From Asterias rubens (Eukaryota): a DNA stretch of 64,000 nt. Location of the stretch: the NCBI RefSeq assembly GCF_902459465.1, contig NC_047064.1:704762-768761 (forward strand), in the 5' to 3' direction. Below the pieces are notes generated by a model. The model ran no database searches and was not told where the DNA came from. It saw only the letters and a program-made list of their open reading frames with translations. The position numbers and the translations under genes are program-made. Below are positions 14,907 to 48,179 of the stretch, in pieces. Numbering within the stretch: the stretch's first letter is position 1; each line of letters starts with the position of its first letter.

Positions 14907-15608
14907 ATGAAGACTGAACTCAAGTCACGTTTAGACAACCCTCTTCTGACGTCATCAAGACAGAGCGGTATAGGTAGCCTCACCTCGGGCCCTAGGCTCT
15001 CTTCTTCATTAGTTAATCCTCTCCTACAGTCAATGAGCAGTAAATCTACTGAGATTGGATCAAGGTATGCCCCTTCCAAGGATAAGAATGCGACGGGGTC
15101 TTACTCCAGCTTCAAGCCAGTCTCGCTCAATCTGAAGCAAGAATCTCTCAGCCTTCAGAGTAATCGCCTCCTTCTTGGATCCAAGTTGACACCTCTCACA
15201 TCCTCTTTGCTCAGCACGTCTAAAACCAGCAGTCTCCAAGGAGGCTCTTACAAAACGACCCTCTCCACAAAGTCTCCTCTCATCAACCAGTCGACAAGTC
15301 TAGGCTCTAGCTCCTTAAAGAAACCTACAGTTACTAATACATTGATAAAGCCTTCCCAGCAAAGACAAGTGAAACCAGCTGGGTTTCAGCAACCCTCTCA
15401 CCTCCCTAAGAAGGCTGTTGCAGAGAACAGACAGGTTCTTATTGATGAGACGGTGGGGAACTTTGAAATTCCTGATTATGATTTTCACTTTGATGTCAAA
15501 GAGAGAGATGATCAGTTTTGGGGACAGGATGACGAGACTTCATTTGAAACTGTAAATCCTGAATTGTTGTCGTTGATGATTTCATCAGAAGATATCAACT
15601 CAAAGAAG
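14907..15608 (+). CDS. TEP1: TEP1-like exon 1 (ATG 14907; Ser/Thr/Leu-rich N-terminal region, 234 codons)
   Basis: The long ORF MKTELKSRLDNPLL…EDINSKK ends at an AAG|GTAAAT donor (15609). The phase-0 end is compatible with the downstream exons. The N-terminus is not conserved with vertebrate TEP1, so assigning the start is an inference. Confidence 0.55.
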
Positions 15609-16349
15609 GTAAATCTTCGGAGAAAACTTCAAGTATCAATTTTTTTCTTCACTTGTTTAAATTTGATAAGTAGGACTGATCATGCTGAAAACTCTATAAT
15701 GTTTTCTTTTCTTTTTATGTTGATCAGCCAAACTTTTGTTTATTTTTATTTAATAACCAATGTTGCCAATACAAATCTAAACATTCACAATTTGATTTTT
15801 ACCCCCACCAAAGTTATAAATATAATTTGTCAAGAAGCTCTGCTCCATGATGTATTTCTTGTACACTAGTTTGATGCTGTATGTCAACCTCTTACATCAG
15901 CCATTGATTCATATTATGGTATGACAGCCAGGCTATGATCCTTGTAGCCAGGCTATAATTCATGTAGTGTGATAGCCAGGCTATGAAGTCCAGGGTGACA
16001 GACTAGCCAGGCCCTGTGCTTGATGATTCACCATGGATGCATGCATTACAACACACTTGATTACAATGTATGGTGTAATAATCATCTTATCTTGTTCAAA
16101 CCAACATGGCCCTATTTCGTTCAAACCAGCATGGCCCTATTTCGTTTAAGCAGAAAATACTTCTTGACAACTTTCTTTGTTAATCATTAAATGAGTGGGG
16201 CACCAGTTGCATTTATGTAAACTTAGAGCAAAATTTTTCTGTGCTGAGCAAATTTAAATGCGCACAGACTTTATGAAATTGGACCCTGCTCAGCTGAAAG
16301 ACTTAGGCTCCTTCAAATACTTTAAAACATTTGGTACAGAGCTATAAAC

Positions 16350-16420
16350 AGCCAGACACAACCTAAGCCATAGCCAGACACAACCTAAGCCATAGCCAGA
16401 CACAACCTAAGCCACAGCCA
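16350..16420 (+). repeat. 3× tandem 22-bp unit (AGCCAGACACAACCTAAGCCAT) in TEP1 intron 1
   Basis: Visible directly; a second 21-bp 2× duplication lies at 16107-16150. Confidence 0.8.
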
Positions 16421-16887
16421 AAGCGGAATCTAGATTTGCTAAGCAGACGAAAGACAAACTACCAGCCAAAATACCAAGGGATATATATTGTAACTCTGGC
16501 TCCCAAAAAGTGTCTCCTGAAAGTGTATAATACAAAATTTGCTAAGCAACATTTTCTTCAAGTTAGTGAACTGTGTCTCTGATGTCATAAAAAGTTCATA
16601 CAAACCACCCCTTCCAAATCTAATATTAATACAAGGCTAGATCTTTCTACATAATTTCGCCATCGTTTTTTTCATTTCACATTTTCAAACTATTTTAAAA
16701 AATGTATTGGAATGTTATTTCATTCAAATGTATAGGCCTAGGCCTAAAGCATTTTGTTCTGCATGTAGGCCCAACTCTTTTTTAGATTGAAATGGACAAA
16801 CGTTAGGCTATTTGAACATTTTCCACTTTTATTCTAATGATTCAATGAAGTAAATAAGTTGTTTCTTCCTTTCCTTCTCACGATTAG

Positions 16888-17022
16888 AGATCTTTTATAA
16901 ACATGATCAGCTCAGCATTGATTCACAGTCCCCATCTTGAGTCAAGAAAGGATGCAACAAGAACAGCTCTGATTAAAGAAGCCAACCCAGTCATCCTGTC
17001 AGATCCTGAATTCATCCTCAAG
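16888..17022 (+). CDS. TEP1: TEP1-like exon 2 (RSFINMISSALIHSPHLESRKDATRTALIKEANPVILSDPEFILK)
   Basis: The acceptor is gattAG|AGA (16886-87), just after an in-frame stop. The donor is AAG|GTTGGT (17023). The exon is in phase 0 to 0. Alternative acceptors at 16907 or 16926 are possible. Confidence 0.45.
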
Positions 17023-17459
17023 GTTGGTTCAAAGGGTTTACTCAGACTTCAAGAGAATATCTTCATTAGAAGAACTATTTATCTTTACTGTAGAAGAACT
17101 AAAAACTATGAGGGATAACATTAGTTATTTACTCTTATTGCCAAGGACTTTTAGAAAAGAGAACTTAAAGGGCCACGTTGCCTCGGATCTGTCGAGTTGG
17201 TCTATGAAAAGTGTTTGAAACCGTTTGTTATAAAATGCATATGGTTGGAAATATGGTTTAAAAGTAGAATATAATGATCTGCAAAAATATGCCTCGAAAA
17301 TGCATGGTTTTCCTTTTATTTTGCAAACTAACACGGTCGGCCATTTTGTGGAGTAAAACATTTTACTTATTCATTTTATAACAAACGGTTTCAAATACTT
17401 TTCATAGACCAATTCACCCGATCCAAGGCAACGCACACTTTTAATCACTGTACTAGGCA

Positions 17460-17700
17460 AGGACACTGGAGAAAACATAAAAGGAAGTGTCAGTTTTAGA
17501 TGTGGTGGAAAACATGCAGTCAGGTGGTAGGGACTGAAAACCCAATCCACATAATTCCCCCTGCAGGATTTGCACAGGGGTCCTAGAGGTGGAAGCCAAC
17601 CTGCATTTATGTGAGCATAGCCACAAACTATGGAGCACCTCCTGAAATGCCCCCTACTGGAACAAGAATGCAAAACTGAGGACCCTGCAGAGTACAATGA
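17460..17700 (-). mobile_element. tRNA-derived SINE (reverse; family with 'gggattcgaacc/ggtcctagaggtggaag')
   Basis: It is similar to 36290-36500 and 42390-42535 (tgtcagttttagatgtgg…actgaaaaccca…cctagaggtggaag…). Confidence 0.6.
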
Positions 17701-17894
17701 TATTGCTAGGAGCTGTGTTCAGTTCTGGCTGAAACACAATATCTAGTGTGTATGGACACGATAAGAAAAAGCCAACCCGACCATCCTAAAATTGCATCTC
17801 TTTCCATTAGGAAAGAGAGAGAGAAACCAAATCATATTTGTTCATTTCTTCATCCTAAAGTTAACCCTTATTCCCTCCATACTTCTCCTTGCAG

Positions 17895-18056
17895 GTTGCT
17901 TTGTATACTCGACGTGAATTAAACATCCGAACTGCTGCCAACTTTCTGCTGGCCCTGGCTGCCAATCATCGTGAATGTCGACCTTACATGAAGAAATACT
18001 TCCAGAAGTCCATCGTTCTCCCGTCTGACTGGGCATCTGTAGCTGACTTATATCTT
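17895..18056 (+). CDS. TEP1: TEP1-like exon 3, TROVE region (VALYTRRELNIRTAANFLLALAANHRECRPYMKKYFQKSIVLPSDWASVADLYL)
   Basis: The acceptor is ttgcAG|GTT and the donor CTT|GTAAGC. The exon is 54 codons in phase 0 to 0, with a TROVE-like 'FLLALAA' motif. Confidence 0.7.
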
Positions 18057-18245
18057 GTAAGCTTGAATTTACCAAATTTTTTACCACATGGGATGCTTTC
18101 AGTGGCAAAATTCTTGCATCAGTCAGTCAGTTGAGCGAGAGGTTGTTTTTATCCAATGCCTTCTCGGGAAACTCTGGATGTGCATAACAATTACTACAGT
18201 TTGTGATATTGCTAACAAATTATTTTTAATTTGTTTTCTCCGCAG

Positions 18246-18342
18246 ACATTCCACGACAAAAACCTGAGCTATAAGTCGCTGCCTTCTGCTCTTCGTAAAG
18301 TGATGGTTGCAAAGTTTCCTGACTTTGACACTTATCAGTTGG
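18246..18342 (+). CDS. TEP1: TEP1-like exon 4 (TFHDKNLSYKSLPSALRKVMVAKFPDFDTYQLG)
   Basis: The acceptor is ccgcAG|ACA and the donor TTGG|GTAAGA. The exon ends in phase 1. Confidence 0.7.
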
Positions 18343-18899
18343 GTAAGAGAAAAGAATCCAAGAAAGCTTGGTCCCAGTTTGATTCATCTGTGTCAAACCA
18401 AATTCAAATTATGATCTATGTTTGTAAAGAGGGAGGCCGGTTACCAGGAGAAAATGGGGATGCCGTTTATCAGGGAGGAACGGGGAAGGAATGTTTTTTT
18501 ATTTTTTTTTTTCACTTTAAAAAGCCTATTTTGAGTGCTTTAGGGTTTAAAGAACCTTTTAAAAAAAAACCATTTTGATTAAGAATATAGGGAAACAACT
18601 CTAAACAACTTTAAATATCTCTTGTATATAATCTTGATTACCTCCCATCCACTCACACCATACAAACCTTGCTGATCAGTTGTGGTTATGAAACAAAGTA
18701 AAAACAGTGCACCTCTAAAGGTTACTCAGCATTCTCCTGAAGTTGATCAGAGCGTGCTGATTGAAACGTTGAGTTATTAAGCACCGGTTCTTTTCAGATC
18801 CAACACTACTCCAAAGAGATTTTCACATAGTGTTACCGCAAACCTCTCTAGTTATATTTCCAACATGCAAAGTTTAAAATCCTAAATCTCATCTCACAG

Positions 18900-19182
18900 G
18901 CAAATACAACAAGACAAAAAAGAAGGCATCTAAGAAGAAATACATCAAAAAGAAGAAACCACCACAGGAGAATGATGAGGAGGCAGACGGAGACGGGGAT
19001 GGTGAGGAAGGAGGGAGTGAGGATGAGGCGGGTGGAGCTAAGAAGGAAGAAGCTGAAGATGACATCCATGCTGATAGCGATGATGATGTTGATCTATGTG
19101 ATCATTACACTCTTAAGCAGCTCATTAGGAAGCTACACATCATGGAACCAGTAGAGAGTGTTATGGGCCTCGTTGGCAAAAA
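18900..19182 (+). CDS. TEP1: TEP1-like exon 5: poly-Lys then acidic stretch, then LKQLIRKLHIMEPVESVMGLVGKK
   Basis: The acceptor is cacAG|GC, which completes the Gly codon from exon 4. The donor is AA|GTTAGA. The 'LKQLIRKLHI.EP' segment matches the vertebrate TEP1 TROVE region (as I recall it). Confidence 0.7.
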
Positions 19183-19484
19183 GTTAGAATCACTTCATAT
19201 TTTCTTCATTTTCTTCTTCAATAAGTCAGATTTAGGTTTACCTTAAGGAAACTATCTTAGATAATTATAATGATTTGTAAATAATTTGAGATTTACATTC
19301 CAACACCCTGTACACAAAAGTAATCAAAAGCGCATGACAAATCTGAAAATTTACTGTCTTTCTCCGCTGAAAAACACTGGGGCTTGATAGTTTGAAACAT
19401 ACACCATGCAATGCCTCAATGTCTGTTTTTTGTTTGTGTTTTTTGGGGGAAGTGTTTTGACCCTCTTTCTTTGGTAATAATCAG

Positions 19485-19642
19485 GTACCCAGAAGATCTG
19501 GAGTCTTTCTACAAGACACGCCTCCCAGGTACTTGGGACCCAGACCGTGCTGGCAAGAGAATGAGACTTCCAACACCAGAGACCTGGGAAACACAGATAT
19601 CGCAAACAGGAAACAAAGCCGCTACTTGGGAGCAACTTATAG
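19485..19642 (+). CDS. TEP1: TEP1-like exon 6 (YPEDLESFYKTRLPGTWDPDRAGKRMRLPTPETWETQISQTGNKAATWEQLI)
   Basis: The acceptor is atcAG|GTA and the donor ATAG|GTCAGA. 'GNKAATWEQLI' matches vertebrate TEP1 'GNKASVWEELI'. Confidence 0.8.
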
Positions 19643-19918
19643 GTCAGACAAGTTTATTTAAACTCTTAAGAATTCCTTTTGTTCGTTTTGTTTCATTCAA
19701 CATCCATTTTTTTCTGTGATTTGATTTTGTTGTGTTTGGTTTATTGAAATTATTATTATTATTTATTCGGCCAAGATTTCAACTAACAGTACAAGATACA
19801 ATATTACCGTACTAAAGAAATATAACAGTATAAGAAACAATGAGTGTAAACTTATGACGCCTAGAACAAAATCAAAATAAACTCAAAATAATAAAAATAA
19901 AACAAAATAAAATCATAG

Positions 19919-20288
19919 AGGCATTGGACACCTTTGGTAATTGTCAAAGACCAGTCTTCTCACTTGGTGTATCCCAACATGCATAAAATAACAAACCTGT
20001 GAAAGTTTGGGCTCAACTGGACATCGCAGTTGCAAGAGAATAATGAAAGAAGAACACCCTTGTTGCATTACTTTGTGTGCTTTGGATGCATAATAAAAGG
20101 CTTCAGCCAAGGTCTGTTATTATTTGAGTGAGAAATTACTTCGTTCTCAAAAACTATGTTACCTCAGAGGAGCAGTTTCTCACAATGTTTTGTACTATCA
20201 ACAGCTCTCCATTGCTCGTTACCAAGTAATTTTTTAATGCTAACAATTATTTGAGTAATTACCAATAGTGTCCAGTTCCTTAAAGTAC
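19919..20288 (-). mobile_element. MITE family 1 copy (reverse orientation) in TEP1 intron 6
   Basis: It has the same TIRs (…ggcattggacacctttggtaattg … caattaccaatagtgtccagttcc) and the same internal sequence as 36790-37175. Confidence 0.75.
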
Positions 20289-20405
20289 CATTATTAGCAA
20301 AGTTCTTTTTCAGGAGTGTATTTCTATATAACTGATATGGCGCTTTACAAATGTCCATTATTATTCTTCTTATTGTTGGGATCTTTCTGAACTTATACAA
20401 TACAG

Positions 20406-20612
20406 ATCATAAGAAGCTTCCGTTTATGGCCATGCTGAGAAACTTGCGTAACATGACGGTGGCCGGTGTCGGGCCCAAGTACCAGGCATGGATTATCCGT
20501 AAACTTACCGATGAGCAAACGGTGATTAACAGCAAGCAGTTTCCATTACGCTTCTTCTCAGCGTACGACGTACTGGACACTATGGAACTAAATCTGAAAC
20601 AATCTGAAGGAA
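20406..20612 (+). CDS. TEP1: TEP1-like exon 7, TROVE core (DHKKLPFMAMLRNLRNMTVAGVGPKYQAWIIRKLTDEQTVINSKQFPLRFFSAYDVLDTMELNLKQSEG)
   Basis: The acceptor is tacAG|AT and the donor GGAA|GTAAGT. 'KLPFMAMLRNL…SKQFPLRF' is the TROVE signature shared by TEP1, Ro60 and vault. Confidence 0.85.
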
Positions 20613-21113
20613 GTAAGTGTTGATTACTTGAGTGTCTGGGATCACTGTTTGAAACTGTTTTCGAAGTATCTTTCTAATAATGTGCATTGGTTGAGATAGT
20701 TGGCTGAATTCATGGGTATCAATTCATTGCTCGTCGTGGTGGAGTGGTCTGGAAAATCAAGTTCTAATGGCTGAGTTATCAGAGTGTGGGTTAAAATCCT
20801 TGTCAAGTAAACACGCATGTGTTCTTGGGCAAAACACTTGACTCTTGCTTCTCATCACCCAGGACATCATAGTGCATGTGAGGGTACAGATTTGTTGTGA
20901 ATAATTATCAACCTCAATTGAGCTGCTAGTGCTGCATGAACAGGCTGTGTTAATAGTGTGAGGCGCTTTTTACACAATGTTGAAAAGTGCCTTATAAATG
21001 CCTACTTTTGTTTTCATCATTTGTCTAATAAACTGCTGAATTTATATCCATTGACATGAAACAGCTGACAAAACCAAATTATCATGAATGATGTTTTCTT
21101 TGTTTGTGCAAAG

Positions 21114-21255
21114 TTGAAACTCCGGCAGAGCCAAGTGTGGATGTTGGTAGAGGGCGTGGCCGTGGTGGCCAGCAAGGGCGTGGTCGAGGTCGTGCTCGAG
21201 GAAGGGGTGGACGCCAAAGTGCAGGACAAGGAAAGCGAAAAGTAGGAAAGCCAAA
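21114..21255 (+). CDS. TEP1: TEP1-like exon 8: RGG/Arg-Gly-rich insert (IETPAEPSVDVGRGRGRGGQQGRGRGRARGRGGRQSAGQGKRKVGKPK)
   Basis: The acceptor is caaAG|TT and the donor AA|GTAAGT. The phases link exons 7 and 9 exactly. Confidence 0.7.
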
Positions 21256-21816
21256 GTAAGTACGGCAAATGTTTTTTGCCTCTTTAAGGTATGTTGCTTT
21301 GGTATGCATCATTGATATAAGGTTAATCGATTACTAACATGAAACTCAGTTGAGAATTTACGAACTATGTCCGATAACTCATATACCACAGTTTGATTAA
21401 GCAGTCCTATTGGTTAAAAGGAGGTCACATGACTGTTTAAGTCAGGTTTAAAACGGCTGATCAAGACATCTGTAGCTGTGAATAGGTGTTCATAGCCAAA
21501 GGCGTAATGCGTCCTGAAAAACAAAGGCTGCCTAATATGAAACTTAGTGTCCCTTCTCACTTAATTTGAGCCACACAAGCTCCAAACTAATGAGACACTG
21601 TCATTATTTTAATAAAATAACCTCAGCCGATTTTCTACTTCCACCCAGGTAGTAGTTAAATAGCAGTACAGTTCTTTTTTAGAACAATCTACTCTGTGGT
21701 AGTAGAATATATAGCAAGACAGTTTGCTAAAGAACAAACTCTACCTGGCAAGTAGATGAACACATGGTGTTACCGCCAACCAAATACTAACAGATTGAAA
21801 TGGATTCCTTTTTTAG

Positions 21817-21991
21817 GGAAATCAAATATACACAAGAGTTGCTGTCTCGGTATCGTAAGGCCTTGGATACAGCAGTAAAGATCTCCACACGTCACAATGT
21901 CAAGCCAATCCGTGGGAAGACTTATATCTACTGTGATGTTGGACCCAAGATGGACACCTTTGGCTGGACTGGCTCCTCTTACTGGGAAAAG
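21817..21991 (+). CDS. TEP1: TEP1-like exon 9 (KEIKYTQELLSRYRKALDTAVKISTRHNVKPIRGKTYIYCDVGPKMDTFGWTGSSYWEK)
   Basis: The acceptor is tttAG|G and the donor AAG|GTTTGT. 'LLSRYRKALDTAVKIS' matches vertebrate TEP1 'MLNRYRQALETAVNLS'. Confidence 0.8.
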
Positions 21992-22536: not shown

Positions 22537-22689
22537 TTGAGAGAAATGGCCATTCTTCTAGGATTGATGTGTAAGCATTCCTGCGAAGATTGTCTGCTGA
22601 CTGCTTATGGGGTCAATAACCAGAGGGTCATTGAACTGGAGAAGGGTACCATCTTAGATAATATCAAGAGTGTTGTGGCATATGCTCAG
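22537..22689 (+). CDS. TEP1: TEP1-like exon 10, vWA-like part of TROVE (LREMAILLGLMCKHSCEDCLLTAYGVNNQRVIELEKGTILDNIKSVVAYAQ)
   Basis: The acceptor is ttacAG|TTG and the donor CAG|GTAAAT. The exon is in phase 0 to 0. Confidence 0.8.
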
Positions 22690-23034
22690 GTAAATCAAAC
22701 AAGAGTTGGTGTTTCTATGCTACTTTCAGAATTTTGTAATTATAAATAATAAAAACAATAAAGGAACTTATCAAGGGCAGTATTGTCGCAAAACAGCCTC
22801 TAAGCTCTGTGTACAAAAATAAAGCTAGATTAAAAAGAAAAATACTGAATCTTGATAATGGACAACAGTAAGTATCGCTCTACCCAGCTTGCAAAGGTAT
22901 TGTTTCTATTGCTTAAAACCTGCATAATTTGTGAACACTTTGAACAGTTTAAAGTATTGTTTTAGATTGAAAATTGGAGAAATAACTTCCACGTGAGTAA
23001 ATTTTGAGATTCATGCATTTTATAAAAATTTCAG

Positions 23035-23276
23035 GCTGTAGATGGGGATGACGTCAACTACTATACTGCTCCACCGAGCAAACTGAGCATGACATCTCTC
23101 TATGATGCTCTTCGTGATCGCATCCACATCGATAACTTAATCATCCTAGGACAAGATTACACCGAGGAAGGGACAGGATGGGAAGAACTGGAAAATTTTG
23201 TTGTCAAGTACAGACAGGTTGTCAATCCAAACCTTCTGTTTGTTCGCTTGGATTTTGATAAATACCATTATAGAAG
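23035..23276 (+). CDS. TEP1: TEP1-like exon 11 (AVDGDDVNYYTAPPSKLSMTSLYDALRDRIHIDNLIILGQDYTEEGTGWEELENFVVKYRQVVNPNLLFVRLDFDKYHYRR)
   Basis: The acceptor is ttcAG|GCT and the donor AG|GTAAGA. 'ILLGQ' and 'CLFVG'-type segments match vertebrate TEP1. Confidence 0.8.
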
Positions 23277-23991
23277 GTAAGAATGTTAGTCGTCACGTAG
23301 GACTTATACACTGATGTTATTATGCCAGAACCGTAACGAATCCCATCCCAATATTATGCCTTTAAGTTATTCCAGCTGGACTCGGAAAACACCGAGCATA
23401 ACTTATGAATATTAGAATCTGTTTATTTCTCTTTGTAAAATCGCAAGGAATTTTATAAAGATGATTTATCCAAACCGACTATGATCGCCAGAACAACTGG
23501 AGACTGAATGGTCTAATGCACATTGCACAGTGTTCAAGTTCTGTTATTCACAGAGTGTGGGTTGGAATACCGACCTGGCTGGTCACAATGCTTGTGTTCT
23601 TTAAAGATACCTTACCATAATTGCTTTGTCCATCAGATGGGACGTTAAGCCATAAATCCTGTGTACAGGGATTCTTGTACTCAGAACACGTAGCGGGATT
23701 AACCCTGGTGTTTCTGGTTCACATAGAAAGCACCCTTGTTCACAGGTTTCCTCAGCATTGTAAGCTACATACAGTGACTAGGTTAAATTTTGAGGCATCT
23801 CTTAATTCATTACCAGAAATGTATAAGTAAGTAAAGTCTGTGGGTGACACTATGTACAAATCTCTTTTGTGAGTAGTGGTTGTAGCTCTGAGAAGAGCTG
23901 TTTCTGCTTCATGTTTGGATCAGTCTGACCATCTTCTGGAGAATGCTGGACTTAGAAATTAATAATAATATACTCCATTTCCTTCTTACAG

Positions 23992-24136
23992 CGAGAAGAA
24001 AAGCACTCATCCTAACGACATCTTAATGATGGGTTACAGTGATAACATCTTAAGATTCATTGCCGAAAGAGGTGACAGTGGGCAGTTGAATCATGTTGAG
24101 AATATTGATAAGGCGTATGGTCTCAGAGAGCTTCAG
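23992..24136 (+). CDS. TEP1: TEP1-like exon 12 (SEKKSTHPNDILMMGYSDNILRFIAERGDSGQLNHVENIDKAYGLRELQ)
   Basis: The acceptor is tacAG|C and the donor CAG|GTAGGA. 'ILRFIAERG' matches vertebrate 'ILKFIAEHG'. Confidence 0.8.
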
Positions 24137-36733: not shown

Positions 36734-36789
36734 GTATGGTTCTGTTTTTCAGCTGAATTTAGATGAATAAGTTTTTTATGTTTTCCTGT

Positions 36790-38742: not shown

Positions 38743-38845
38743 TCTGGAACCCTATGCTGTAATTTATGCCATTGGTAATAAAGCTGTGACATGCTGCGGA
38801 TTTGATATGGATGGTACCAGACTAGCCACAGGAACCAAAGATATG
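38743..38845 (+). CDS. TEP1: TEP1-like exon 35, WD repeat (SLEPYAVIYAIGNKAVTCCGFDMDGTRLATGTKDM)
   Basis: The acceptor is tccAG|T and the donor ATG|GTAAAC. The sequence matches vertebrate 'VSCCSFSTDGGSLATGGRD'. Confidence 0.8.
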
Positions 38846-39264
38846 GTAAACAAAAATTTACGAAAAAATCACACGTTTTGAAAACATAAAAAAAAAATTG
38901 AATAATTCATAACAACTATAGTAATTTGATAAAGTGCTTTACACGAACTGTCTTTTTATATATTTTTTACCCACCATTTACAGATATCATTAAAAAACAT
39001 TGAAAGATAAAGTTACTTATATAATATAATATAAGTTGAAGATTACAACTATGCAATAACTAAATAGTCAGGTATGCTCTGATTGAGTTGAAACTTACGG
39101 TTCTTTTCAGAACCACCAGGATTCATTTACAGATTATCATTACATGGTGTTCCCACAAACCTTTACATTATCGTATTTCCACCGTGCAAAATTTCAAATC
39201 CTACTTTGACAATAATTGATAAAAGATTATTAATAAATCTGCATATGATGATAATCTACCATAG

Positions 39265-39393
39265 AGTGTCCAGATCTGGAGTATGGAGAGAGATGTTCTC
39301 TTAGGCACAACGCTACGACCAATGGCAGAGATGCATGCATGTCATAAAGACTGGGTCACTGCACTTTGCTGGTCAGACGCTTCAGATCACTTG
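39265..39393 (+). CDS. TEP1: TEP1-like exon 36 (SVQIWSMERDVLLGTTLRPMAEMHACHKDWVTALCWSDASDHL)
   Basis: The acceptor is catAG|AGT; alternatives at 39267 (out of frame) or 39277 (in frame) exist. The donor is TTG|GTAAGA. 'CHKDWVT' matches vertebrate 'CHRDWVTGCAW'. Confidence 0.7.
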
Positions 39394-40163
39394 GTAAGAA
39401 CACCCAGGAATTTACACTATTCAATCAAATTTCATTATTTCACATAGAAATGTGTTTTCTAGCTCAGTGAAATGTTGTAATTTTTATTGACAAGACAGGA
39501 TTGGTGGAAGATAACTGTTCAGTTTATTGAAATGTTAGTACTCACTTTATTGTTGTTCTCATGAAAAATAAAATTATTCATTGGAAAGACCCCTAGCATA
39601 CGATGTCACTACCCCAAACAGAGCCCTCACTGAGATCAATGACGACGCGTCATTGGCTGAGAGGTTTGCGCAGCGCGTACAGGCTTGCACAGATCCATTG
39701 TTTGATCTTGATGATGGCAGCCAATGCGAGGGGTCTATGAAGAGGTTTTTTTTTAAAATTCAAATGGAAATGAAACGTCAGGAAGTGTGTGTTACCAATT
39801 TGAAAATAACTGAAACCATTCATACAAAAGCAGCAGGTTCAACCAATGTGTTTGTTGAAATGATCTTTCCGTCAAAGAAACTCGGGTGGGGGGGGGGATA
39901 TAAACACAAAGCTGGCAACAGCCAATCTCTCTCACACAAACATTGATTTATGTCTATAAATTGGCTATTATAAATCGCACAAATAAAAAAAAAGTGATTT
40001 AGTAACAAGACGACCATACTTATTCTAGTCATTGTGAAATCAGTGGTTAGCTTGGTGGGATTCGAACCTACATCTTTGTAATTGCAAGTCCTGTATTCTA
40101 ACCACTTTTTGTTTCCTATTCAACCTTCTGTAAACTGTAAATCTCTGTTTTTCTTTACTGTAG

Positions 40164-40271
40164 GTGACTGCATCCAATGATTTCATTATTAAGCTTTGGG
40201 ACATGAAGACTATGAAAGTCAAACATGAATTTATGGGACACACCAGCGCCATTAACTCTGTTGCCTTCAGT
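40164..40271 (+). CDS. TEP1: TEP1-like exon 37, WD repeat (VTASNDFIIKLWDMKTMKVKHEFMGHTSAINSVAFS)
   Basis: The acceptor is gtAG|GTG and the donor AGT|GTGAGT. Confidence 0.8.
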
Positions 40272-40804
40272 GTGAGTATTCAGCATCAAAACTTTCACCT
40301 TTAACAATTTGATTTATTTTTCAGACTAAAAATGACCCTGAGAAAGGGAAGCTAAATGTTAATTTAAAGGCACTAGAAACCTTTGGTAAATTGTCAAAGA
40401 CCAACATTTTCACTTGGTTTATCCAAACATATGCAGACAATAACAAATCTATATTTGTGCTAACAATTATTTGTTAGAAATTACCAATATTGTATTTAAA
40501 GATGCCTGAAAATGTTGCTCCTACTGGAGTAGTCTATTCATCAAATATGTGTTTCATTTACGGTCAGTTCATGATTTTGCCCAGAACCAGATCCAAACCC
40601 TACCCAGCCCCAGTCCCTGCCCTAGTTCCAGACCAAGCCAGCCAGCCTGCATTATTCTTTTTATTTTGTTAGCCCGAACAAAGTAACTGCCCATTGATAC
40701 TACACATGTGCTACATGTATCTACTCGGGAGGGCAGTCAGCTTTTGCTTTTCTTATAAATCCCAGCAATATCTCACAATTTTTTCCTCTCTGTTTTCCTA
40801 ACAG

Positions 40805-40943
40805 CAAGGTTGTGTCGTCTCAGCATGTTTTGATGGATCAGTCAGAGTCTGGTCTCATAAAGGAGTTGAGATTACGACACTCTACGGACACAATAGCCGT
40901 GTCAACAGCTGTGATGTCTTTGTAGTTTCTAAACAAGCACAAG
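40805..40943 (+). CDS. TEP1: TEP1-like exon 38, WD repeat (QGCVVSACFDGSVRVWSHKGVEITTLYGHNSRVNSCDVFVVSKQAQ)
   Basis: The acceptor is acAG|CAA and the donor CAAG|GTAGAA. The sequence matches vertebrate 'DHQGVELTSIPAHSGPISHCAA'. Confidence 0.8.
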
Positions 40944-41289
40944 GTAGAAAACAACTTACTCTTAACTTTATTTTAAAATATTGTTCCTTAAACAATTTTC
41001 TTTTGAACATCTTATAGCAGAGGACGTTTATTTAGTGCTGGTATCTGCCCAGAACATGACCATAAACATACCCTCCCTGTTCCCTCTCTTAATGCTGTTA
41101 ACCCCAGCTGGGGCAGTGACCTCCCAATGAGAATTGACACTAAACAGGGTCCGAGGGCCCAAGGAGATATAGACAGGATTTTAGCTTCCATATTTGTTTT
41201 ATGAACTGTTTCTTGAGAACTAGAATAGCACAACTTTTCCAAAACTATATCAGGAGCTTGTCTCTGGATCATTTCTCGTGATTGTACAG

Positions 41290-41477
41290 ATATCTTTGGA
41301 GATGTTGAGAACAAGGAGGCGGGGCAGACCAGCTGGGCGAGTATGACGGCCACTGAAGAGTGGAAGGATGCTCACTCAAAGAAGAAACTAGACAAAGTGG
41401 AGATGGTTCGCTTGGAGAATGTTGTCGTAGCAACAGCCAGTGATGATGCAATGACTCACCTATGGAAGCCGTTGCAG
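41290..41477 (+). CDS. TEP1: TEP1-like exon 39 (DIFGDVENKEAGQTSWASMTATEEWKDAHSKKKLDKVEMVRLENVVVATASDDAMTHLWKPLQ)
   Basis: The acceptor is acAG|AT and the donor CAG|GTAAAT. Confidence 0.75.
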
Positions 41478-41782
41478 GTAAATTTTGTTTTAGATCAAAT
41501 TAGATTTAATATTGTAAAGGAGAAGTTTACCTTTGGTTTTTGGAGTTATATAATTGTTTTGGTCCTATATAAATGTAGATATATACACAAAACTAATATT
41601 TAAATTTCATTTCAAAAGGTGGTCGTGTTTTTTTGACATATCGCCAAAATTCCTCATAGGAATACACACAATTTTGCAAAACATTTTTCAAGGAATTTTG
41701 TTTTTTAGATTTGTTACAGAACAAAAGCTTGTCTTCTTAAAATGGCAGTTATCGCATATTTTTTTCCATTTTTCTTTTTTAG

Positions 41783-41902
41783 GGCAATGAGATGTCATCT
41801 ATGAGTGGACACTCTGATAGCGTTGTGGCCGTAGCTGTATCAAGCAAAGGTCATATGATCACAGGGTCACATGATAAAACAATGAAGTTCTGGATTCCGA
41901 AG
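41783..41902 (+). CDS. TEP1: TEP1-like exon 40, WD repeat (GNEMSSMSGHSDSVVAVAVSSKGHMITGSHDKTMKFWIPK)
   Basis: The acceptor is tttAG|GGC and the donor AAG|GTGAGA. The sequence matches vertebrate 'LGHSGPVRAAAVSETSGLMLTASEDGSVRLWQVPK'. Confidence 0.85.
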
Positions 41903-42389
41903 GTGAGACTTGATTCTTCCATTCTATTTAGGGGCTAATTTTCAAAGAGCTGCTTAAACAGAAATTATTGCATAATAATTTCCTGCTTAGCGGGACACCA
42001 GTCACAGATGGTTCATGTGCCAAGGTATTTTGGCTAATAACATATTCTGGCAAGCATTATTTTGTTGTGCTTACAGTGTTCACTCTTAACAGTGGACTGC
42101 TGGCCAAATTCCAGTTAGATTTCAGTCTCCAAGTTGTCTGGCTGACTAGCTCAGTGTTAAAAAGTATCCCATTTAATTTAAAGCTAATTGATCCTGCTGG
42201 CTAGTCATTGAACAAGTTATAAGCAAACCCAGACTTATTTATAATAATATATTATTACATTATAATGTAATGAATTGGACCCAGTACTTTTATTTATTTA
42301 TTTATTAATTCTGAACTTAATCTCTATACTAGCCAAGAACCTCGTGGAGAGAAGACAAGGAAGGAAGTTTTGGTTTTAGAAGTGGGGAG

Positions 42390-42535
42390 AAAAACCCAGA
42401 GATTTATTCCATTGAAAACCCACGCAGTTAGGCAGGCACTGAAACCTAATGCATGGAGTGCCTCTGGTGGGATTTGAACCCGGGTCCTAGAGGTGGAAGG
42501 CTAGGAAAGATACCACTACACCAACCCAACTGTCT
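42390..42535 (-). mobile_element. tRNA-derived SINE (reverse) in TEP1 intron 40
   Basis: The sequence is …ggcactgaaacctaatgcatggagtgcctctggtgggatttgaacccgggtcctagaggtggaagg…. Confidence 0.6.
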
Positions 42536-42622
42536 AGATCTTGTTCGATGACTGGTTAGATCACAACAGCCAAATTTGTTGACAAGAAAAACTTACTGAT
42601 TGTATTTGATTTGTGTTAATAG

Positions 42623-42714
42623 TTGGAGGCTCAGGTCCTTTCTGCTCGTCATAATGGTGAGGTTACATGTACTGCGTATTCCATCAAAGCAACGTATGCC
42701 ATCTCTGCAAACAG
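42623..42714 (+). CDS. TEP1: TEP1-like exon 41 (LEAQVLSARHNGEVTCTAYSIKATYAISAN)
   Basis: The acceptor is aatAG|TTG and the donor ACAG|GTAAGC. Confidence 0.7.
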
Positions 42715-42734
42715 GTAAGCAAACAAGTCAATAT

Positions 42735-42935
42735 CAGGGCTCAATTTCATAAAGATGTTAAGCAGAAGGTTCTGCTGAAGCAAATTTCTTGGCTAAGCAA
42801 GTAAAGACAAGGGTACCTGTAGCAGCAATGGTAATTGTATAGTGTTCTGGCTGGTAAGCTGTTTTTGCTAAGCAAGCGTTTTGTGCTTAGCAAGTATTTG
42901 TGCTACCAGGCTTTATGAAATTGGGACCAGGTCTA
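42735..42935. mobile_element. MITE family 2 copy (TIR GGGCTCAATTTCATAAAG … CTTTATGAAATTGGGACC) in TEP1 intron 41
   Basis: The ends are inverted repeats, and the internal sequence is rich in the 'gctaagcaag' motif. Confidence 0.7.
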
Positions 42936-44183
42936 CAAGATCATGCCTCGAATTACACAAAGGCCAAGGAGGCATAGCCTCTGTTGCCCATGGTCTTGGC
43001 CTTGGTGCCCCTATCAAAAGTTCCCATAGACTTTAAAGGAACACGTTGCCTTGGATCGGTCGAGTTGGTCTTTGAAAAGTATTTGTAACCGTTTTTTATA
43101 AAATGCATATAGGTAGATAGACGTTGTAAAAGTAGAATACAATAATCCACACAAACATGCCTCGCAATTGCACGGTTTTCCTTTTACCTCGTCGACTAAC
43201 ACGGTCGGCCATGTAAGTTCGCACAGTAAAAGGAAAACCACGCAATTTCGAGGCAAACTTGTGTGGATCATTGTATTCTACTTTTAAAACATCTTTCCAA
43301 CCATATGCATTTTATAAAAAAGGGTTAAAAAACGCTTTTTATAGACCAACTCGTCCGATCCAAGGCAACGTGTTCCTTTAAGATTGTCCAACGGAAGTGC
43401 CCTTTGCAACATAAAAATGGCCTTGCCCTTTGAAAGATGAAATTCCAAGCCTGCAAAACGGAGCGTGTTTAGTTCAGGGATGAGATATTTCAGACTTTTA
43501 TGTGAAACTCAGACTTTTTAAAGTCTTCCTAGTGTAAAATGTTATATTTTTCTCAAAACAAAAAAGTATAGCTCTTTGATCTACCTCTCTAGCTCTGAGG
43601 ATATTGCTTAATCTTATTAGTTTTCCCAAAAGCTCCTTGAAATCTATATCAAAGGGGTTGTCAAAAGGTTGGAGTGCTATCATTTCAACGTACCTCGTAA
43701 GATCTACTTATCAATCAAATTTTCTACAAAACACAGCCATTACCTACGTAAATTTTGTTTACGTTTCGACTAGTATAATCATTAGTCATCCTTAGAACGA
43801 GGCACAACCAGTCGGTTGGTGGTGCCGTTTACTACTGCCACAATTGGCCTCACCACCATCAAGTAGCTGTAGCAGGAAACTGGTGGGACCGGTGCCTCGT
43901 TCTGATGATGACTAGTGATACCAGTCGAAAAGTAAAAACAATTTACGTGAGTATTGGCTGTGTTTTGTAGAAAATTCATTTGATAAGTTGTTATTTTACC
44001 AGCCTGATGAACTTCTTCCATGATACTCGTAAGATCTGGATCCCATTTTCAGTCTTTTAAAGTAGTCATCCATAGTTTCCTCTAACCTTTAGACGTAAAA
44101 GACGTTAATGACGTTAGCTTATATAAGTTTTATGTTAAAACTTTCAGCACTTTTGTATAACTTCTTGTATTTTATTTTTGAAG

Positions 44184-44265
44184 GAATGGTGAAGTAATGG
44201 TCTGGAAGATGCCTGAGAAGAAGTCTACCTCACTGACTCTACCAAAGGTTGTCTTCTCAAACAAG
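44184..44265 (+). CDS. TEP1: TEP1-like exon 42 (RNGEVMVWKMPEKKSTSLTLPKVVFSNK)
   Basis: The acceptor is gaAG|G and the donor AAG|GTAACC. 'GEVMVWK' matches vertebrate 'GELILWQ'. Confidence 0.7.
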
Positions 44266-44664
44266 GTAACCTAAAAAGAAAAACACACCCGCAAAGTCGT
44301 GCACCCTATTTTCAATTGATTTTAAAATTCTGCAAAATAATGGCATATTAAACGTGACTAAGTTTGTTTAATCATCACTTGTCGATAAGAAGAACATTGT
44401 ATTTCTTGTACATTTTGGAAAAGAATCCTGTGTTTTAAACACTGTGCACAGTGCCTGTTTGTGCTCATGCAACTTCTGAGAAAATAGCTTTTGCAATCTG
44501 CTTACCAACCAAAAGGTATAAATGCAAAAAGTAGTGGCCTGACATATCGAACCAAGCAGAGTGTTTCTCAAAGGATAGAATACTGCTAGGGTTGAAACAT
44601 CAGGCTATCAACTATTTAATTGAGATTGAAGTTTCTTATCTATATTTCTGGTTTTTGTCATCAG

Positions 44665-44795
44665 TTGATGGATAAGGCCATCAATGCTGTATGCTTCTTG
44701 AGTGACACCCGGTTTGCTTTGGGGTCTGACAATGGTATTGTCACCGTGTGGGACATTGACGCCCCAACCCCACCCATGACTGCGTGGAGAGTACA
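44665..44795 (+). CDS. TEP1: TEP1-like exon 43, WD repeat (LMDKAINAVCFLSDTRFALGSDNGIVTVWDIDAPTPPMTAWRV)
   Basis: The acceptor is atcAG|TTG and the donor ACA|GTGAGT. The phase-2 end is completed by the first base of exon 44; an alternative GTACAG donor at 44791 would break the frame. Confidence 0.7.
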
Positions 44796-44856
44796 GTGAG
44801 TTTTATTTCTGAAGATCAATAACTCTTTCAGTTTTCTTCTCTTTTCTCCTCTCTTT

Positions 44857-45957
44857 CCTGAGCCCAATTTCATGGCTCTGCTTACTGTAAGCAAAGAATC
44901 AATGCTTACCGTAAGCAAAGAATCAATGCTTACCATAAGCAAAGAATCAATGCTTACCGTAAGCAAAGATTCAATGCTTACCATAAGCAAAGAATCAATG
45001 CTTACCGTAAGCAAAGAATCAATGCTTACTGTAAGCAAAGAATCAATGCTAAGCAAAGAATCAATGCTTACCGTAAGCAAAGAATCAATGCTTACCGTAA
45101 GCAAAGAATCAATGCTTACCGTAAGCAAAGAATCAATGCTTACCGTAAGCAAAGAATCAATGCTTACCGTAAGCAAAGAATCAATGCTTACCGTAAGCAA
45201 AGAATCAATGCTTACCGTAAGCAAAGAATCAATGCTTACCGTAAGCAAAGAATCAATGCTTACCGTAAGCAAAGAATCAATGCTTACCGTAAGCAAAGAA
45301 TCAATGCTTACCGTAAGCAAAGAATCAGTGCTTACTGAAAGCAAAGAATCAATTCTCATGTAAGCAGGGAATCAATGCTTACCGCAAGCGAAGAATCAAC
45401 GCTTACCATAAGCTCAGAAATCCCTGCTTACTGTAAACAAAGAATCAATGCTTACCGTAAGCAAAGAATCAATGCTTACCGTAAGCAAAGAATCAATGCT
45501 TACCGTAAGCAAAGAATCAATGCTTACCGTAAGCAAAGAATCAATGCTTACCGTAAGCAAAGAATCAATGCTTACCGTAAGCAAAGAATCAGTGCTTACT
45601 GAAAGCAAAGAATCAATTCTCATGTAAGCAGGGAATCAATGCTTACCGCAAGCGAAGAATCAACGCTTACCATAAGCTCAGAAATCCCTGCTTACTGTAA
45701 ACAAAGAATCAATGCTTACCGTAAGCAAAGAATCAATGCTTACCGTAAGCAAAGAATCAATGATTATGTAAGCAGAGAATTCTGAGTTTACATCAAGCAA
45801 AGTTCACAGGTTAGCAGGGAATTATTGCTTGTGTGTGTGCATGTTCTACGAAACTTCGCTTGCACATCTAGCGAAGAAACTTGGCGCTTGCCCTGTAAGC
45901 GAAGAATAGTGATTGCAAATGCAGAATTTGACAGTAAGCAGACCCATGAAACTGGGC
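44857..45957. mobile_element. MITE family 2 copy (TIR GCCCAATTTCATGGCTCTGCTTAC…GTAAGCAGACCCATGAAACTGGGCCC) whose interior is expanded into a 24-bp satellite
   Basis: The terminal inverted repeats are recognisable at 44857-44885 and 45928-45957. The interior is a tandem array (see repeat 44872-45780). Confidence 0.6.
44872..45780. repeat. Satellite array of ~35 copies of the 24-bp unit AAGCAAAGAATCAATGCTTACCGT, with a 2× higher-order ~250 bp block, in TEP1 intron 43
   Basis: The periodicity is directly visible. It creates spurious long ORFs on both strands (44661..45359 minus and 44872..45363 plus). Confidence 0.9.
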
Positions 45958-46098
45958 CCAGTTCTGAGAACACTGAACTTGAGTAATTATAAGTTTGTCT
46001 CTGCTGGTATCCCCCTTTAACCCCCCCCCCCCCCCCCCCCCCCCGATGCAAATTTAACATCATTTCTAATCTTCGGGAAAAAATACTACTTTTTACAG

Positions 46099-46254
46099 AC
46101 AGAGGAAAAGTATGCAGACTGAAGGTTATGAGAAGAGCCCAATCACATGTATGACCTATGACCCTTTGAGGGATAACCTTTATACAGGTCACTGGGCAGC
46201 CATGGTATGCTCATTCAAGTGTGACTCCGGCAAACTACGAGCAATCTACAAAAG
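46099..46254 (+). CDS. TEP1: TEP1-like exon 44 (QRKSMQTEGYEKSPITCMTYDPLRDNLYTGHWAAMVCSFKCDSGKLRAIYK)
   Basis: The acceptor is tacAG|A and the donor AAAG|GTATTA. Confidence 0.7.
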
Positions 46255-46276
46255 GTATTACAAAACCTCTTCATTC

Positions 46277-46672
46277 TTAAAGACATCGGACATGTTTGGC
46301 CATTGTCATAGACCAGTCTCCTCACTTGGTGTATCCCAACATAATGCATCAAATAACAAACCTGTGAACATTTCGACTCATCAATTGGTTACAAAAGTTG
46401 CAAGAGAATAATGAAAGAAAGAAAAAAACCTTGTTGCACAAATTTGTCTGCTTTCAGATGCCTAAAAAAGGCTTCAGGTCTAAAGTCTTTTAACATTTGA
46501 GTCAGAAATTACCTCTTTCTTAAAAACTACGTTACTTCAGAGGGAGCTGTGTCAATGTTTTCAATGTTTTATACTATCAAAAGTTCTCCATTGCTCGTTG
46601 CCAAGTAAGTTTGAATGCAAACAATTATTTTGAGTAATTACCAATAGTGTCCAGTGCCTTTAAACTGTTAAC
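46277..46672 (-). mobile_element. MITE family 1 copy (reverse) in TEP1 intron 44
   Basis: Its TIRs are …gccattgtcatagaccag… and …caattattttgagtaattaccaatagtgtccagtgcctttaaac. Confidence 0.75.
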
Positions 46673-47028
46673 ATTGTTAATGCTTTTGTGTACTGGCCAT
46701 TTTGTTCACTGGAAAGACTGCACAGTTGTGTCAAGTACTTGTTTGTATTCTGCAACCCAAAAATATTTTTATAAGTATTGTCGTCTAGTTATTGAATCAT
46801 AACTTCATGATTTATTGTCATCTAGTTACTGAATCATAACTTCTTGATTTATTGTCGTCTAGTTACTGAATAATAATTTCTAGATTGGTGCAAGTCATAA
46901 TGTTTGTATGAGAGAGATTTGCTGTTGCCAGCTTAGTGTTTAAATCCCCTTGTGTGAGTTTTCTAAATTCCATCGATGGGAAGATTGTGAAAACAAACTC
47001 TTTTGTGATTTTTCTTATTTTTGTCTAG

Positions 47029-47134
47029 AGATGAGAAGGACTCCCCTGATTGGATCTTAGATGTGAAGATTCTAAGAGATAACACCATGGTAGCAACTAC
47101 TGCAGCAGGAGAGATACAACACTTCAGAAACTTG
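47029..47134 (+). CDS. TEP1: TEP1-like exon 45 (RDEKDSPDWILDVKILRDNTMVATTAAGEIQHFRNL)
   Basis: The acceptor is ctAG|A and the donor TTG|GTAAGA. Confidence 0.7.
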
Positions 47135-47377
47135 GTAAGAACATCCTCTGGGATATCTAAAACACTGGGTGCAAGGGTCAAAGTTCAAGGTTATCAGTAA
47201 GCCAATATGATTACCTCATTTATGTATAAAGACAAACTAATTTGTGAATTTTTAAAACATGCTGAAAGACAAACAAAAAATTCTTTTTGGAGATTGCTTG
47301 GAACTTGTTGCCTCATGTGACAAGGCCCTAAGTTTCACAAGTTGCAATTTATAATGTTATTAATCATTTCGTTTTAG

Positions 47378-47608
47378 GAGTTGTTCCCTGCCTCACGATT
47401 CACCATCATGAACCCAGAGGAGAAGGTTGTTGGTTACCAGCCTCCTTGCTGGGTAGCAGCCTGCGCTGGAGTAGAGTTACGCAGTGGTAAGCGGCTTGGT
47501 TTAGGCGATGCCGGTAAGGGAATGAAGACAGCAGTTTTAACAGTAGACTCCATGGGATACTTGGCAGTGTGTGACGTCACGACGCAAGAAGTTATATCAA
47601 AGAAAAAG
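47378..47608 (+). CDS. TEP1: TEP1-like exon 46 (ELFPASRFTIMNPEEKVVGYQPPCWVAACAGVELRSGKRLGLGDAGKGMKTAVLTVDSMGYLAVCDVTTQEVISKKK)
   Basis: The acceptor is ttAG|GAG and the donor AAG|GTAGGT. Confidence 0.7.
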
Positions 47609-47797
47609 GTAGGTCACCTTTCGCCTAATAAGTAGTAGTTCAAAAGCAGGATAGTTTGTTTCAGAAATGAGAAGTCTCTTGATTTCCGAAAAACTTTCTA
47701 GAAAAACTCTGCTCGGGCCGAAACGTCAAAACAAGATTTTTACATTTAAACCATCAGTGCTTTGGTTGGTAAGCTCTATTTTCTTATTTATTTCTAG

Positions 47798-47902
47798 GTT
47801 CACACAGATGGAGTGAATGACATAGCTGTCTGTGACGATGTCATCTGCACTGCATCAGAAGATAGCGCCCTCAAGTTGTGGTCTCGTAAGAACTTGAAAC
47901 AG
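47798..47902 (+). CDS. TEP1: TEP1-like exon 47, last WD repeat (VHTDGVNDIAVCDDVICTASEDSALKLWSRKNLKQ)
   Basis: The acceptor is ctAG|GTT and the donor CAG|GTAATG. The sequence matches vertebrate 'IHSGSVTALHVLPELLVTATKDRDVKLWERPSMQ'. Confidence 0.85.
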
Positions 47903-48035
47903 GTAATGTTTAATTTTCAATAATCAATTATCTTAAAATTTTCAAATCTTTAAATGCACTTTACAAGTATTGTAATTGTAGTAATTATTATTTATTATTT
48001 TACAATTTAAGTTCTTTATCTTCATTTATCTTTAG

Positions 48036-48179
48036 GTGGGTCAGTTCTATTGCCAAGCGCCTGTTACTACGGTAACGACCTCACCAATCCCAGAATGCAG
48101 AGAATTTATCTGTGGAGACAAACTTGGTAATGTTTACTTCTTGGAATGGTGCAGCAAAAGTTCAAGCGGAAATTACTAA
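48036..48179 (+). CDS. TEP1: TEP1-like terminal coding exon (VGQFYCQAPVTTVTTSPIPECREFICGDKLGNVYFLEWCSKSSSGNY*), stop TAA 48177-48179
   Basis: The acceptor is ttAG|GTG. 'GDKLGNVYFLEW' matches the vertebrate TEP1 C-terminus '…GDVQGNVYFLNWE'. Confidence 0.85.
   Translation: MGQFYCQAPVTTVTTSPIPECREFICGDKLGNVYFLEWCSKSSSGNY

Follow-up and report, generated by a model that had tools for sequence, protein, structure and literature searches.

Gene structure and identity of the locus

The window analyzed here, a stretch of 64,000 nucleotides of Asterias rubens DNA, carries a coding region at 14907-48179 of the forward strand, with 48 exons and an 8001-nt CDS for 2666 amino acids. We estimate at about 95% the probability that this locus is the single-copy, intact Asterias rubens gene for telomerase protein component 1 (TEP1, also called vault-associated protein), with 48 coding exons across 33.3 kb for a 2666-aa STAND-type protein. 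The flanking genes, cyclin-H-like and LOC117287798, give matches of 100% identity to Asterias rubens on the same contig. The reading frame opens at 14907 with the first ATG past the in-frame stop codon 14898-14900 and closes with a TAA at 48177-48179.

We rebuilt the TEP1 model independently from a de novo exon chain and from spliced protein-to-genome alignments of 12 TEP1 homologs. The unguided exon-chaining finder arrived at the ATG at 14907 and the same stop codon at 48177-48179, and the consensus of the 12 spliced homolog alignments has exactly 48 exons. All of these are on the forward strand. Exons 1 to 13 occupy 14907-15608, 16888-17022, 17895-18056, 18246-18342, 18900-19182, 19485-19642, 20406-20612, 21114-21255, 21817-21991, 22537-22689, 23035-23276, 23992-24136, and 24540-24616. 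Exons 14 to 26 follow at 25209-25385, 25845-26087, 26258-26371, 26951-27071, 27725-27907, 28273-28448, 28674-28824, 29209-29385, 29630-29722, 30265-30397, 30919-31096, 32124-32236, and 32486-32766. Exons 27 to 41 lie at 33189-33410, 34010-34105, 34521-34645, 35387-35642, 35794-35913, 36635-36733, 37756-38019, 38355-38521, 38743-38845, 39265-39393, 40164-40271, 40805-40943, 41290-41477, 41783-41902, and 42623-42714, and exons 42 to 48 at 44184-44265, 44665-44795, 46099-46254, 47029-47134, 47378-47608, 47798-47902, and 48036-48179. The introns are GT-AG in 47 of 47 cases, their phases (27 phase 0, 6 phase 1, and 14 phase 2) are compatible throughout, and the 8001-nt CDS holds zero internal stops and zero frameshifts.

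A few exons are less strongly marked. The acceptor of exon 36 scores -6.1 bits, and exon 13 was picked by 8 of the 12 homolog alignments. The length of exon 13, 2 modulo 3, is needed for an in-frame join of exon 12 to exon 14; its acceptor is preceded by a good pyrimidine tract, and the exon is 100% identical in A. amurensis. Several alternative in-frame junctions occur at exons 36, 42, 44, 45, and 46, so minor TEP1 isoforms are possible. Support for the predicted junctions comes from homology, from splice-site scores, and from the match to the RefSeq protein, itself a computed model.

The rebuilt protein is identical, residue for residue (2666/2666), to RefSeq XP_033624207.1, "telomerase protein component 1-like [Asterias rubens]," and we infer from the identical translation that the model also agrees with the RefSeq annotation exon by exon. 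An initial annotation of this DNA had proposed a 48-exon TEP1 gene, and its exon count, end points, and motif order, the three properties compared, coincide with the independent rebuild. Its claim of 47 GT-AG introns with compatible phases is borne out by the exon chain and the open 8001-nt CDS. The exons it had marked as doubtful (1-2, 13, 36, and 43) are the weaker ones in the rebuild too, and the full protein still equals XP_033624207.1. This check shows that the letters of the genome alone can yield a fully correct reading of a 48-exon gene, and that the RefSeq model is consistent within itself. The suggestion that the locus is useful as a complete invertebrate TEP1 model fails for Asterias rubens: the identical 2666-aa protein is in RefSeq already. 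Both the gene and the exact protein are thus known for this species; the gene is an ordinary one and carries little weight as a discovery.

Domain order and membership in the TEP1 family

The encoded protein reads, in order, TROVE, vWA (DUF5920), TIR-like NADase (DUF4062), NACHT, winged helix/helical, and WD40 propellers. The matches to both TEP1-specific propeller families exceed the curated Pfam cut-offs. Ahead of the TROVE domain, exon 1 (14907-15608, forward strand) encodes residues 1-234, a Ser/Thr/Leu-rich segment followed by an acidic stretch, within an open frame of 322 codons (14901-15866) in DNA of ~38% GC. No Pfam family matches residues 1-234 at E <= 1, which confirms the proposal that the vertebrate N-terminal TEP1 repeats are missing. 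Outside Asterias, the only relative detected for exon 1 is one weak collinear match of residues 165-239 to a sea urchin TEP1-like protein (E 0.004 against 240 sequences); with the A. amurensis ortholog the exon shares 97.9% identity in an ungapped alignment. Among the listed relatives, the four 30-residue TEP1 repeats (PF05386) occur in mammalian entries only (primate and deer).

The TROVE RNA-binding domain (15585-21916, residues 227-662, exons 1-9) matches PF05731 in one stretch (E 1.7e-99, 334 bits) and end to end, over profile positions 13-442 of 442. Within the domain lie two low-complexity loops, one acidic/Lys-rich (residues 366-430, 18342-19093) and one RG-rich (exon 8, 21114-21255), and the motifs KLPFMAMLRNL (20414-20446) and SKQFPLRF (20531-20554). 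Directly after it lies the vWA-like DUF5920 domain (22552-24118, residues 693-861, exons 10-12; PF19334, E 2e-13, 50.9 bits against a cut-off of 27), and the 77-nt exon 13 (24540-24616, residues 868-893) links this domain to the TIR-like NADase domain, DUF4062 or TeTIR (25210-27056, residues 894-1106, exons 14-17; PF13271, E 5e-19, 68.7 bits).

A rival reading is that the gene model falsely joins two neighbors, a TROVE-only "p80/Ro-like" gene and a TIR-NACHT-WD40 gene. Exon 13 lacks homology and was chosen in only two-thirds of the alignments (8/12), the databases contain many TROVE-only proteins of 600-900 aa, and in Lytechinus pictus the annotated protein is without the vWA/TIR part. The introns beside exon 13, however, measure just 403 and 592 nt, too short to house a terminator and a promoter, and the splice phases are compatible. 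Transcript-derived and single-contig homologs (e.g., P0009, P0004, P0001, and P0002) join TROVE, DUF5920, DUF4062, and NACHT in one protein, and RefSeq models a single product of 2666 aa in each of the two Asterias species. We consider such a fusion extremely unlikely and read the TROVE, TIR-like, and NACHT domains as parts of a single polypeptide, with one open frame running through exons 1-48 and DUF4062 immediately upstream of NACHT.

The NACHT NTPase domain (27860-29340, residues 1157-1325, exons 18-21) scores 35.8 bits against PF05729 (cut-off 26.7) and 44.6 bits against AAA_16. Its Walker A motif GKSGCGKT (27875-27898) and its Walker B motif VIFLDGLD, which starts at 28741, are both intact. 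ESAFNNQ and VSERL are found at 29365-29385 and 30265-30279. A winged-helix HTH_NWD1 domain (residues 1372-1497; PF25469, 31.1 bits, cut-off 27) and an APAF1-like helical domain (residues 1535-1645; PF17908, 28.6 bits, cut-off 22.8) share the interval 30265-33305, exons 23-27. The WD40 beta-propeller region (33324-48149, residues 1652-2657, exons 27-48; WD40, 288 bits in 11 stretches) includes LNCVAFHPEG at 35541-35570 and the C-terminal GNVYFLEW at 48126-48149. Within it lie the TEP1 second propeller (Beta-prop_TEP1_2nd, PF25047; 38364-40939, 251.6 bits, cut-off 89) and the TEP1 C-terminal propeller (Beta-prop_TEP1_C, PF25048; 47801-48149, 193.3 bits, cut-off 32).

The best named database relatives of both protein halves are telomerase protein component 1 from Elysia, Branchiostoma, Lytechinus, sharks, and primates. 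We weighed whether the gene might instead encode a different NACHT-WD40 STAND protein, such as NWD1, NWD2, or a relative, since the middle part also matches the HTH_NWD1, NPHP3_N, and nSTAND families and the DUF4062-NACHT core is common to NWD1, NWD2, NPHP3, and TEP1. The chance of this is practically negligible: a single phase-consistent frame places TROVE (334 bits) and DUF5920 ahead of the TIR-like domain, the TEP1-specific propellers score above their cut-offs, and every top match, the exact RefSeq one included, is a TEP1. Placement in the NWD1/NWD2 family, with the TIR-like domain as the N-terminus, was rejected, as TROVE and vWA lie ahead of that domain in the same ORF. The call of a TEP1 ortholog is upheld by TROVE, DUF5920, DUF4062, NACHT, the TEP1-specific propellers, and the best TEP1 relatives; a best match to NWD1 lacking TROVE, named beforehand as the outcome that would speak against it, did not appear.

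The TIR-like NADase domain and the integrity of the gene

All nine TEP1 motifs quoted in the initial annotation are present on the forward strand in the order given. Two of them, placed between TROVE and NACHT (25228-25275 and 25342-25377), had been left unlabeled; their presence stands, and the block needs correcting to the TIR-like NADase domain, inside which both fall. The biological value added here is this identification, the domain being known from 2026 preprints (10.64898/2026.05.01.722283; 10.64898/2026.09.21.753143), together with the conservation of its functional residues. The starfish domain aligns with PDB entry 11gz_A ("Telomerase protein component 1," human) at E 2.3e-59, and the first 113 aligned residues are ungapped and 59% identical. 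In this alignment the GAG codon at 26005-26007 (forward strand) encodes E1006, the counterpart of E1008, the catalytic Glu of human TEP1 according to the same two preprints. Over the gapless alignment, F900, S903, R906, R912, R940-W941-G942, R952, C957, R974, and E1006 correspond to human F902, S905, R908, R914, R942-W943-G944, R954, C959, R976, and E1008, whose roles in NADase activity are described in those preprints. Judged by its predicted sequence, starfish TEP1 keeps every residue that they found necessary for the activity of the human protein. NADase activity has been demonstrated for TEP1 domains of human, mouse, zebrafish, sponge, and Dictyostelium (2026 preprints), species that phylogenetically bracket an echinoderm. 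Together, the residue conservation and the sponge, amoeba, and vertebrate data support NAD+ cleavage as an ancestral TEP1 function across animals.

The 3' end of exon 16 is repeated in four tandem 41-bp copies (26341-26502), all four retaining an intact G|GTAAGTTC donor. Reading on toward a downstream donor copy runs into a TAA directly after the first copy, so use of such a donor would be expected to target the transcript for nonsense-mediated decay. That the copies form a regulated splicing switch, tuning the level of a potentially toxic NADase by this route, seems to us very unlikely; the duplication may be a neutral intronic minisatellite. The four-fold donor, a minisatellite in intron 43, and a SINE-like repeat family in several introns could also be taken as signs of a decaying or unexpressed pseudogene copy, yet the repeats are wholly intronic. 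The 8001-nt CDS runs through 48 exons with no stop or frameshift, all splice sites are canonical, and the catalytic and Walker residues are all intact. The A. amurensis ortholog, present as a near-identical database entry, differs by 1.5% with one single-residue gap, although the 98.5% identity of two species this close says little about constraint. A pseudogene is an extremely improbable reading, and we retain that of an intact TEP1 gene.

Starfish TEP1 and related systems

By analogy with the mammalian protein, the N-terminal TROVE ring and vWA domain would bind small non-coding RNA, namely vault RNA and, in mammals, also telomerase RNA, and TEP1 would be located within the vault particle. 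On the same analogy, the NACHT NTPase, the winged-helix/helical domains, and the WD40 propellers would act as an Apaf-1-like switch and oligomerization module. In the starfish, the gene is presumably expressed and its product presumably associates with vaults, binds RNA, and acts as an NADase. Vaults have been described in sea urchins, according to references listed in PMC7916137. No Rfam family, vault RNA included, was found in the window.

Ro60 also carries a TROVE and vWA module, which binds small structured RNAs (PMC7916137), but it stops after vWA, where starfish TEP1 continues. A phmmer PDB search gave no match to Ro60 at E <= 0.001, so the kinship is at profile level only. NWD1, NWD2, and NPHP3 have in common with starfish TEP1 the core of TIR-like, NACHT, winged-helix, and repeat domains, but unlike it they are without the TROVE-vWA extension; in the 2026 preprints, NADase activity was not seen for NWD1 and NPHP3 and was absent or only weak for NWD2.

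Invertebrate TEP1-like proteins (Lytechinus pictus P0121, Branchiostoma P0003, Elysia P0002, and Solemya P0008) are 44-52% identical to the starfish protein, and those of amphioxus (Branchiostoma), Solemya, and Elysia have RG-rich and acidic loops at the same TROVE positions. Most of these database models are partial or without internal domains (that of L. pictus passes from TROVE straight to NACHT), whereas the Asterias model is complete. Primate TEP1 fragments are 32-34% identical to starfish TEP1 across the N-terminal 1046 aa. Human TEP1 has four N-terminal TEP1 repeats, where the starfish protein instead has its Ser/Thr/Leu-rich N-terminus; the PF05386 repeats are a vertebrate or mammalian feature and do not define the family. 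The TROVE loops, acidic/Lys-rich and RG-rich in the starfish, are Arg/Pro-rich in human. The human protein otherwise has a similar length and the same order of TROVE, vWA, TIR-like NADase, NACHT, helical, and WD40 domains, and its NADase core, 59% identical to that of the starfish, keeps all functional residues.

A homolog-guided model of the TEP1 gene

The initial annotation had proposed a complete 48-exon ortholog of TEP1 whose hallmark peptides follow one another in a fixed order. Six-frame translation of the window recovered all nine quoted peptides, once each, on the plus strand and in that order (20414-48149), bearing out the motif set. The window has a GC content of approximately 38%, and its plus strand carries many short open segments, as in a multi-exon eukaryotic gene. 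The ATG at 14907 is preceded by an in-frame stop (14898-14900), and the frame carrying GNVYFLEW ends with a stop at 48177-48179.

We rebuilt the gene independently, without the exon list of the initial annotation. A crude concatenation of the obvious exon pieces matched TROVE, DUF5920, DUF4062, and NACHT in Pfam, and a homolog search with it recovered proteins named telomerase protein component 1 in molluscs, amphioxus, sharks, and primates. The best match to the C-terminal half was a sea urchin TEP1-like protein (44% identity, 87% of the query covered). Two de novo exon-chaining models were set aside. The first (63 exons) was over-greedy, ran into the minisatellite in intron 43, and passed beyond the stop. 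The second (52 exons), which combined trimmed homology hints with self-trained splice matrices, reproduced the previously proposed ATG and stop exactly; it also included micro-exons, as well as exons that ran on too far and had negative donor scores, and was superseded by the homolog-guided consensus. For that final model, a GeneWise-style spliced aligner was run with 12 homologs, and the boundaries backed by most of them were retained, which yielded exactly 48 exons on the plus strand (14907-48179). The joined exons form a coding sequence of 8,001 nt with no internal stop, encoding 2,666 amino acids, and all 47 introns are GT-AG (133 to 1,469 nt; median, 501 nt).

An exact-sequence look-up at the protein level matched this model, residue for residue, to XP_033624207.1, the RefSeq entry “telomerase protein component 1-like [Asterias rubens].” The consensus and the exact match together uphold the proposed 48 exons, start, stop, and 47 GT-AG introns; judged from sequence, both the observation and its interpretation are correct. 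The TEP1 locus is an ordinary gene that is known and already annotated. By reading frame, exon 46 could also be split, and in-frame junctions could lie instead at 39274, 44247, 46105, 46293, or 47176. Splice scores favor the model adopted here, whose junctions are also backed by its exact match to the RefSeq protein; the one alternative looked up, with the acceptor at 46105, is absent from the protein collection by exact sequence. The acceptor of exon 36 is poor (-6.1 bits); the join still gives a canonical WD repeat that is present in the RefSeq protein.

The ortholog in Asterias amurensis (2,665 amino acids) shares a cluster with XP_033624207.1 and is 98.5% identical overall and 97.9% identical in exon 1, a species pair too closely related for conservation to be informative. 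The 90% cluster of the Asterias protein is represented by a 115-amino-acid fragment, which explains why the Asterias entry was not among the results of two large homolog searches.

Repeats and neighboring genes

Tandem and interspersed repeats occur within and around TEP1. At the end of exon 16 and into the intron, a 41-bp unit is repeated in four copies that are 93% alike (26341-26502). The unit corresponds to the final 31 nt of exon 16 together with the splice donor, and an intact G|GTAAGTTC donor is present in all four copies, after 26371, 26412, 26453, and 26494. The annotated TEP1 protein uses the first copy, and a TAA lies immediately beyond it, so that splicing from any of the three decoy donors would yield a truncated TEP1. 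Within intron 43, a 24-bp minisatellite of approximately 38 copies (44879-45780; 88% matches) is open in several frames and was the source of the false exons in the first de novo model. An interspersed family of approximately 390 bp, which looks like a SINE or MITE, has at least eight copies in the window that are 74 to 90% alike and occur in both orientations; six lie in TEP1 introns (19913-20285, 24720-25056, 26737-26873, 27113-27244, 36790-37176, and 46275-46664) and others lie outside the gene (10279-10513 and 57728-58114). A 12-bp array of approximately 29.5 copies (63441-63791) lies close to the window end.

Upstream of TEP1 are a doublecortin-domain open segment and a RAM-domain (RNMT-activating mini protein) gene. 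The former (5077-5661, minus strand; 195 amino acids; PF03607, E = 4e-20) is identical to a 194-amino-acid ENA protein (P0241) and is probably a single exon of a DCX-family gene. The RAM gene (10759-11868, minus strand; PF15320, 36.6 bits) has an Arg/Gly/Gln-rich second exon. It is divergent from TEP1, and the two start codons are approximately 3 kb apart, suggesting that the genes may share a bidirectional promoter region. This intergenic region contains two copies of an 84-bp unit shortly before the TEP1 ATG (14538-14706) and an inverted copy that is 95% identical (12980-13116).

Downstream, cyclin-H-like exons on the same strand as TEP1 (52677-52973 and 53527-53775) match Cyclin_N and Cyclin_C_2. 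The cyclin-H region also contains 23 copies of a 38-bp minisatellite unit (53768-54639) as well as part of a reverse transcriptase (55082-55435; RVT_1, below the Pfam cut-off); both probably lie in introns of the cyclin-H gene. The A. rubens cyclin-H-like protein (P0242) and LOC117287798 are 100% identical to the cyclin exons and the RAM gene, respectively, on a 22.9-Mb contig. Rfam and tRNA scans gave no match in the 64-kb window, and the Rfam scan found no vault RNA gene adjoining TEP1.

Domain architecture and comparison with other TEP1 proteins

Against the full model, TROVE matched as one stretch spanning the whole Pfam profile (E = 1.7e-99), and two TEP1-specific propeller families scored far above their curated cut-offs. 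Between them, the middle region carries DUF5920 (vWA), DUF4062, NACHT, HTH_NWD1, and an APAF1-like helical domain, with intact Walker A (GKSGCGKT) and Walker B (VIFLDGLD) motifs. The alternative reading as an NWD-type protein is excluded, because proteins of that type lack the TROVE-vWA extension. Fusion of two neighboring genes into one TEP1 model is unlikely, as several homologs combine all of the domains within one protein and linker exon 13 is flanked by short introns of 403 and 592 nt. Residues 1 to 234 have no Pfam match even at E ≤ 1, so that the N-terminus lacks the TEP1 repeats of vertebrates, as had been claimed. Among 240 fetched homologs searched with blastp and phmmer, exon 1 has a single marginal, collinear match, to a sea urchin protein.

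Two low-complexity loops on the plus strand interrupt TROVE (18342-19093 and 21114-21255; residues 366 to 430 and 582 to 629), the first acidic/Lys-rich and the second an RG repeat (GRGRGRGGQQGRGRGRARGRGG). At the equivalent alignment position, the TEP1s of amphioxus, Solemya, and Elysia also carry the RG loop, whereas those of sharks and primates have Arg-rich sequence without RG repeats there. The Lytechinus pictus TEP1-like protein (P0121; 2,143 amino acids) aligned by tblastn to the TROVE exons and then directly to the NACHT exons. The vWA and TIR-like parts are missing from it, which is probably an annotation gap in L. pictus rather than biology.

TEP1 is a vault component that binds vault RNA via TROVE and carries vWA, NACHT, and WD40 modules (review PMC7916137, which also cites sea urchin vault work). 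Two 2026 preprints show that its DUF4062 domain is a TIR-like NADase that works within vaults and requires E1008; the human enzyme also needs F902, R914, R942, C959, and R976, with a contribution from R908 (10.64898/2026.05.01.722283 and 10.64898/2026.09.21.753143). The TEP1 domains of zebrafish, a sponge, and Dictyostelium share this activity. The starfish domain aligns to the human structure (PDB chain 11gz_A) at E = 2e-59, with the first 113 aligned residues ungapped and 59% identical. The NADase residues are all kept: F900, S903, R906, R912, R940-W941-G942, R952, C957, R974, and E1006, the counterpart of catalytic E1008. From these residues, the intact Walker motifs, and the published TEP1 data, we infer that the starfish protein would likewise be a STAND protein that binds RNA, associates with vaults, and has NADase activity.
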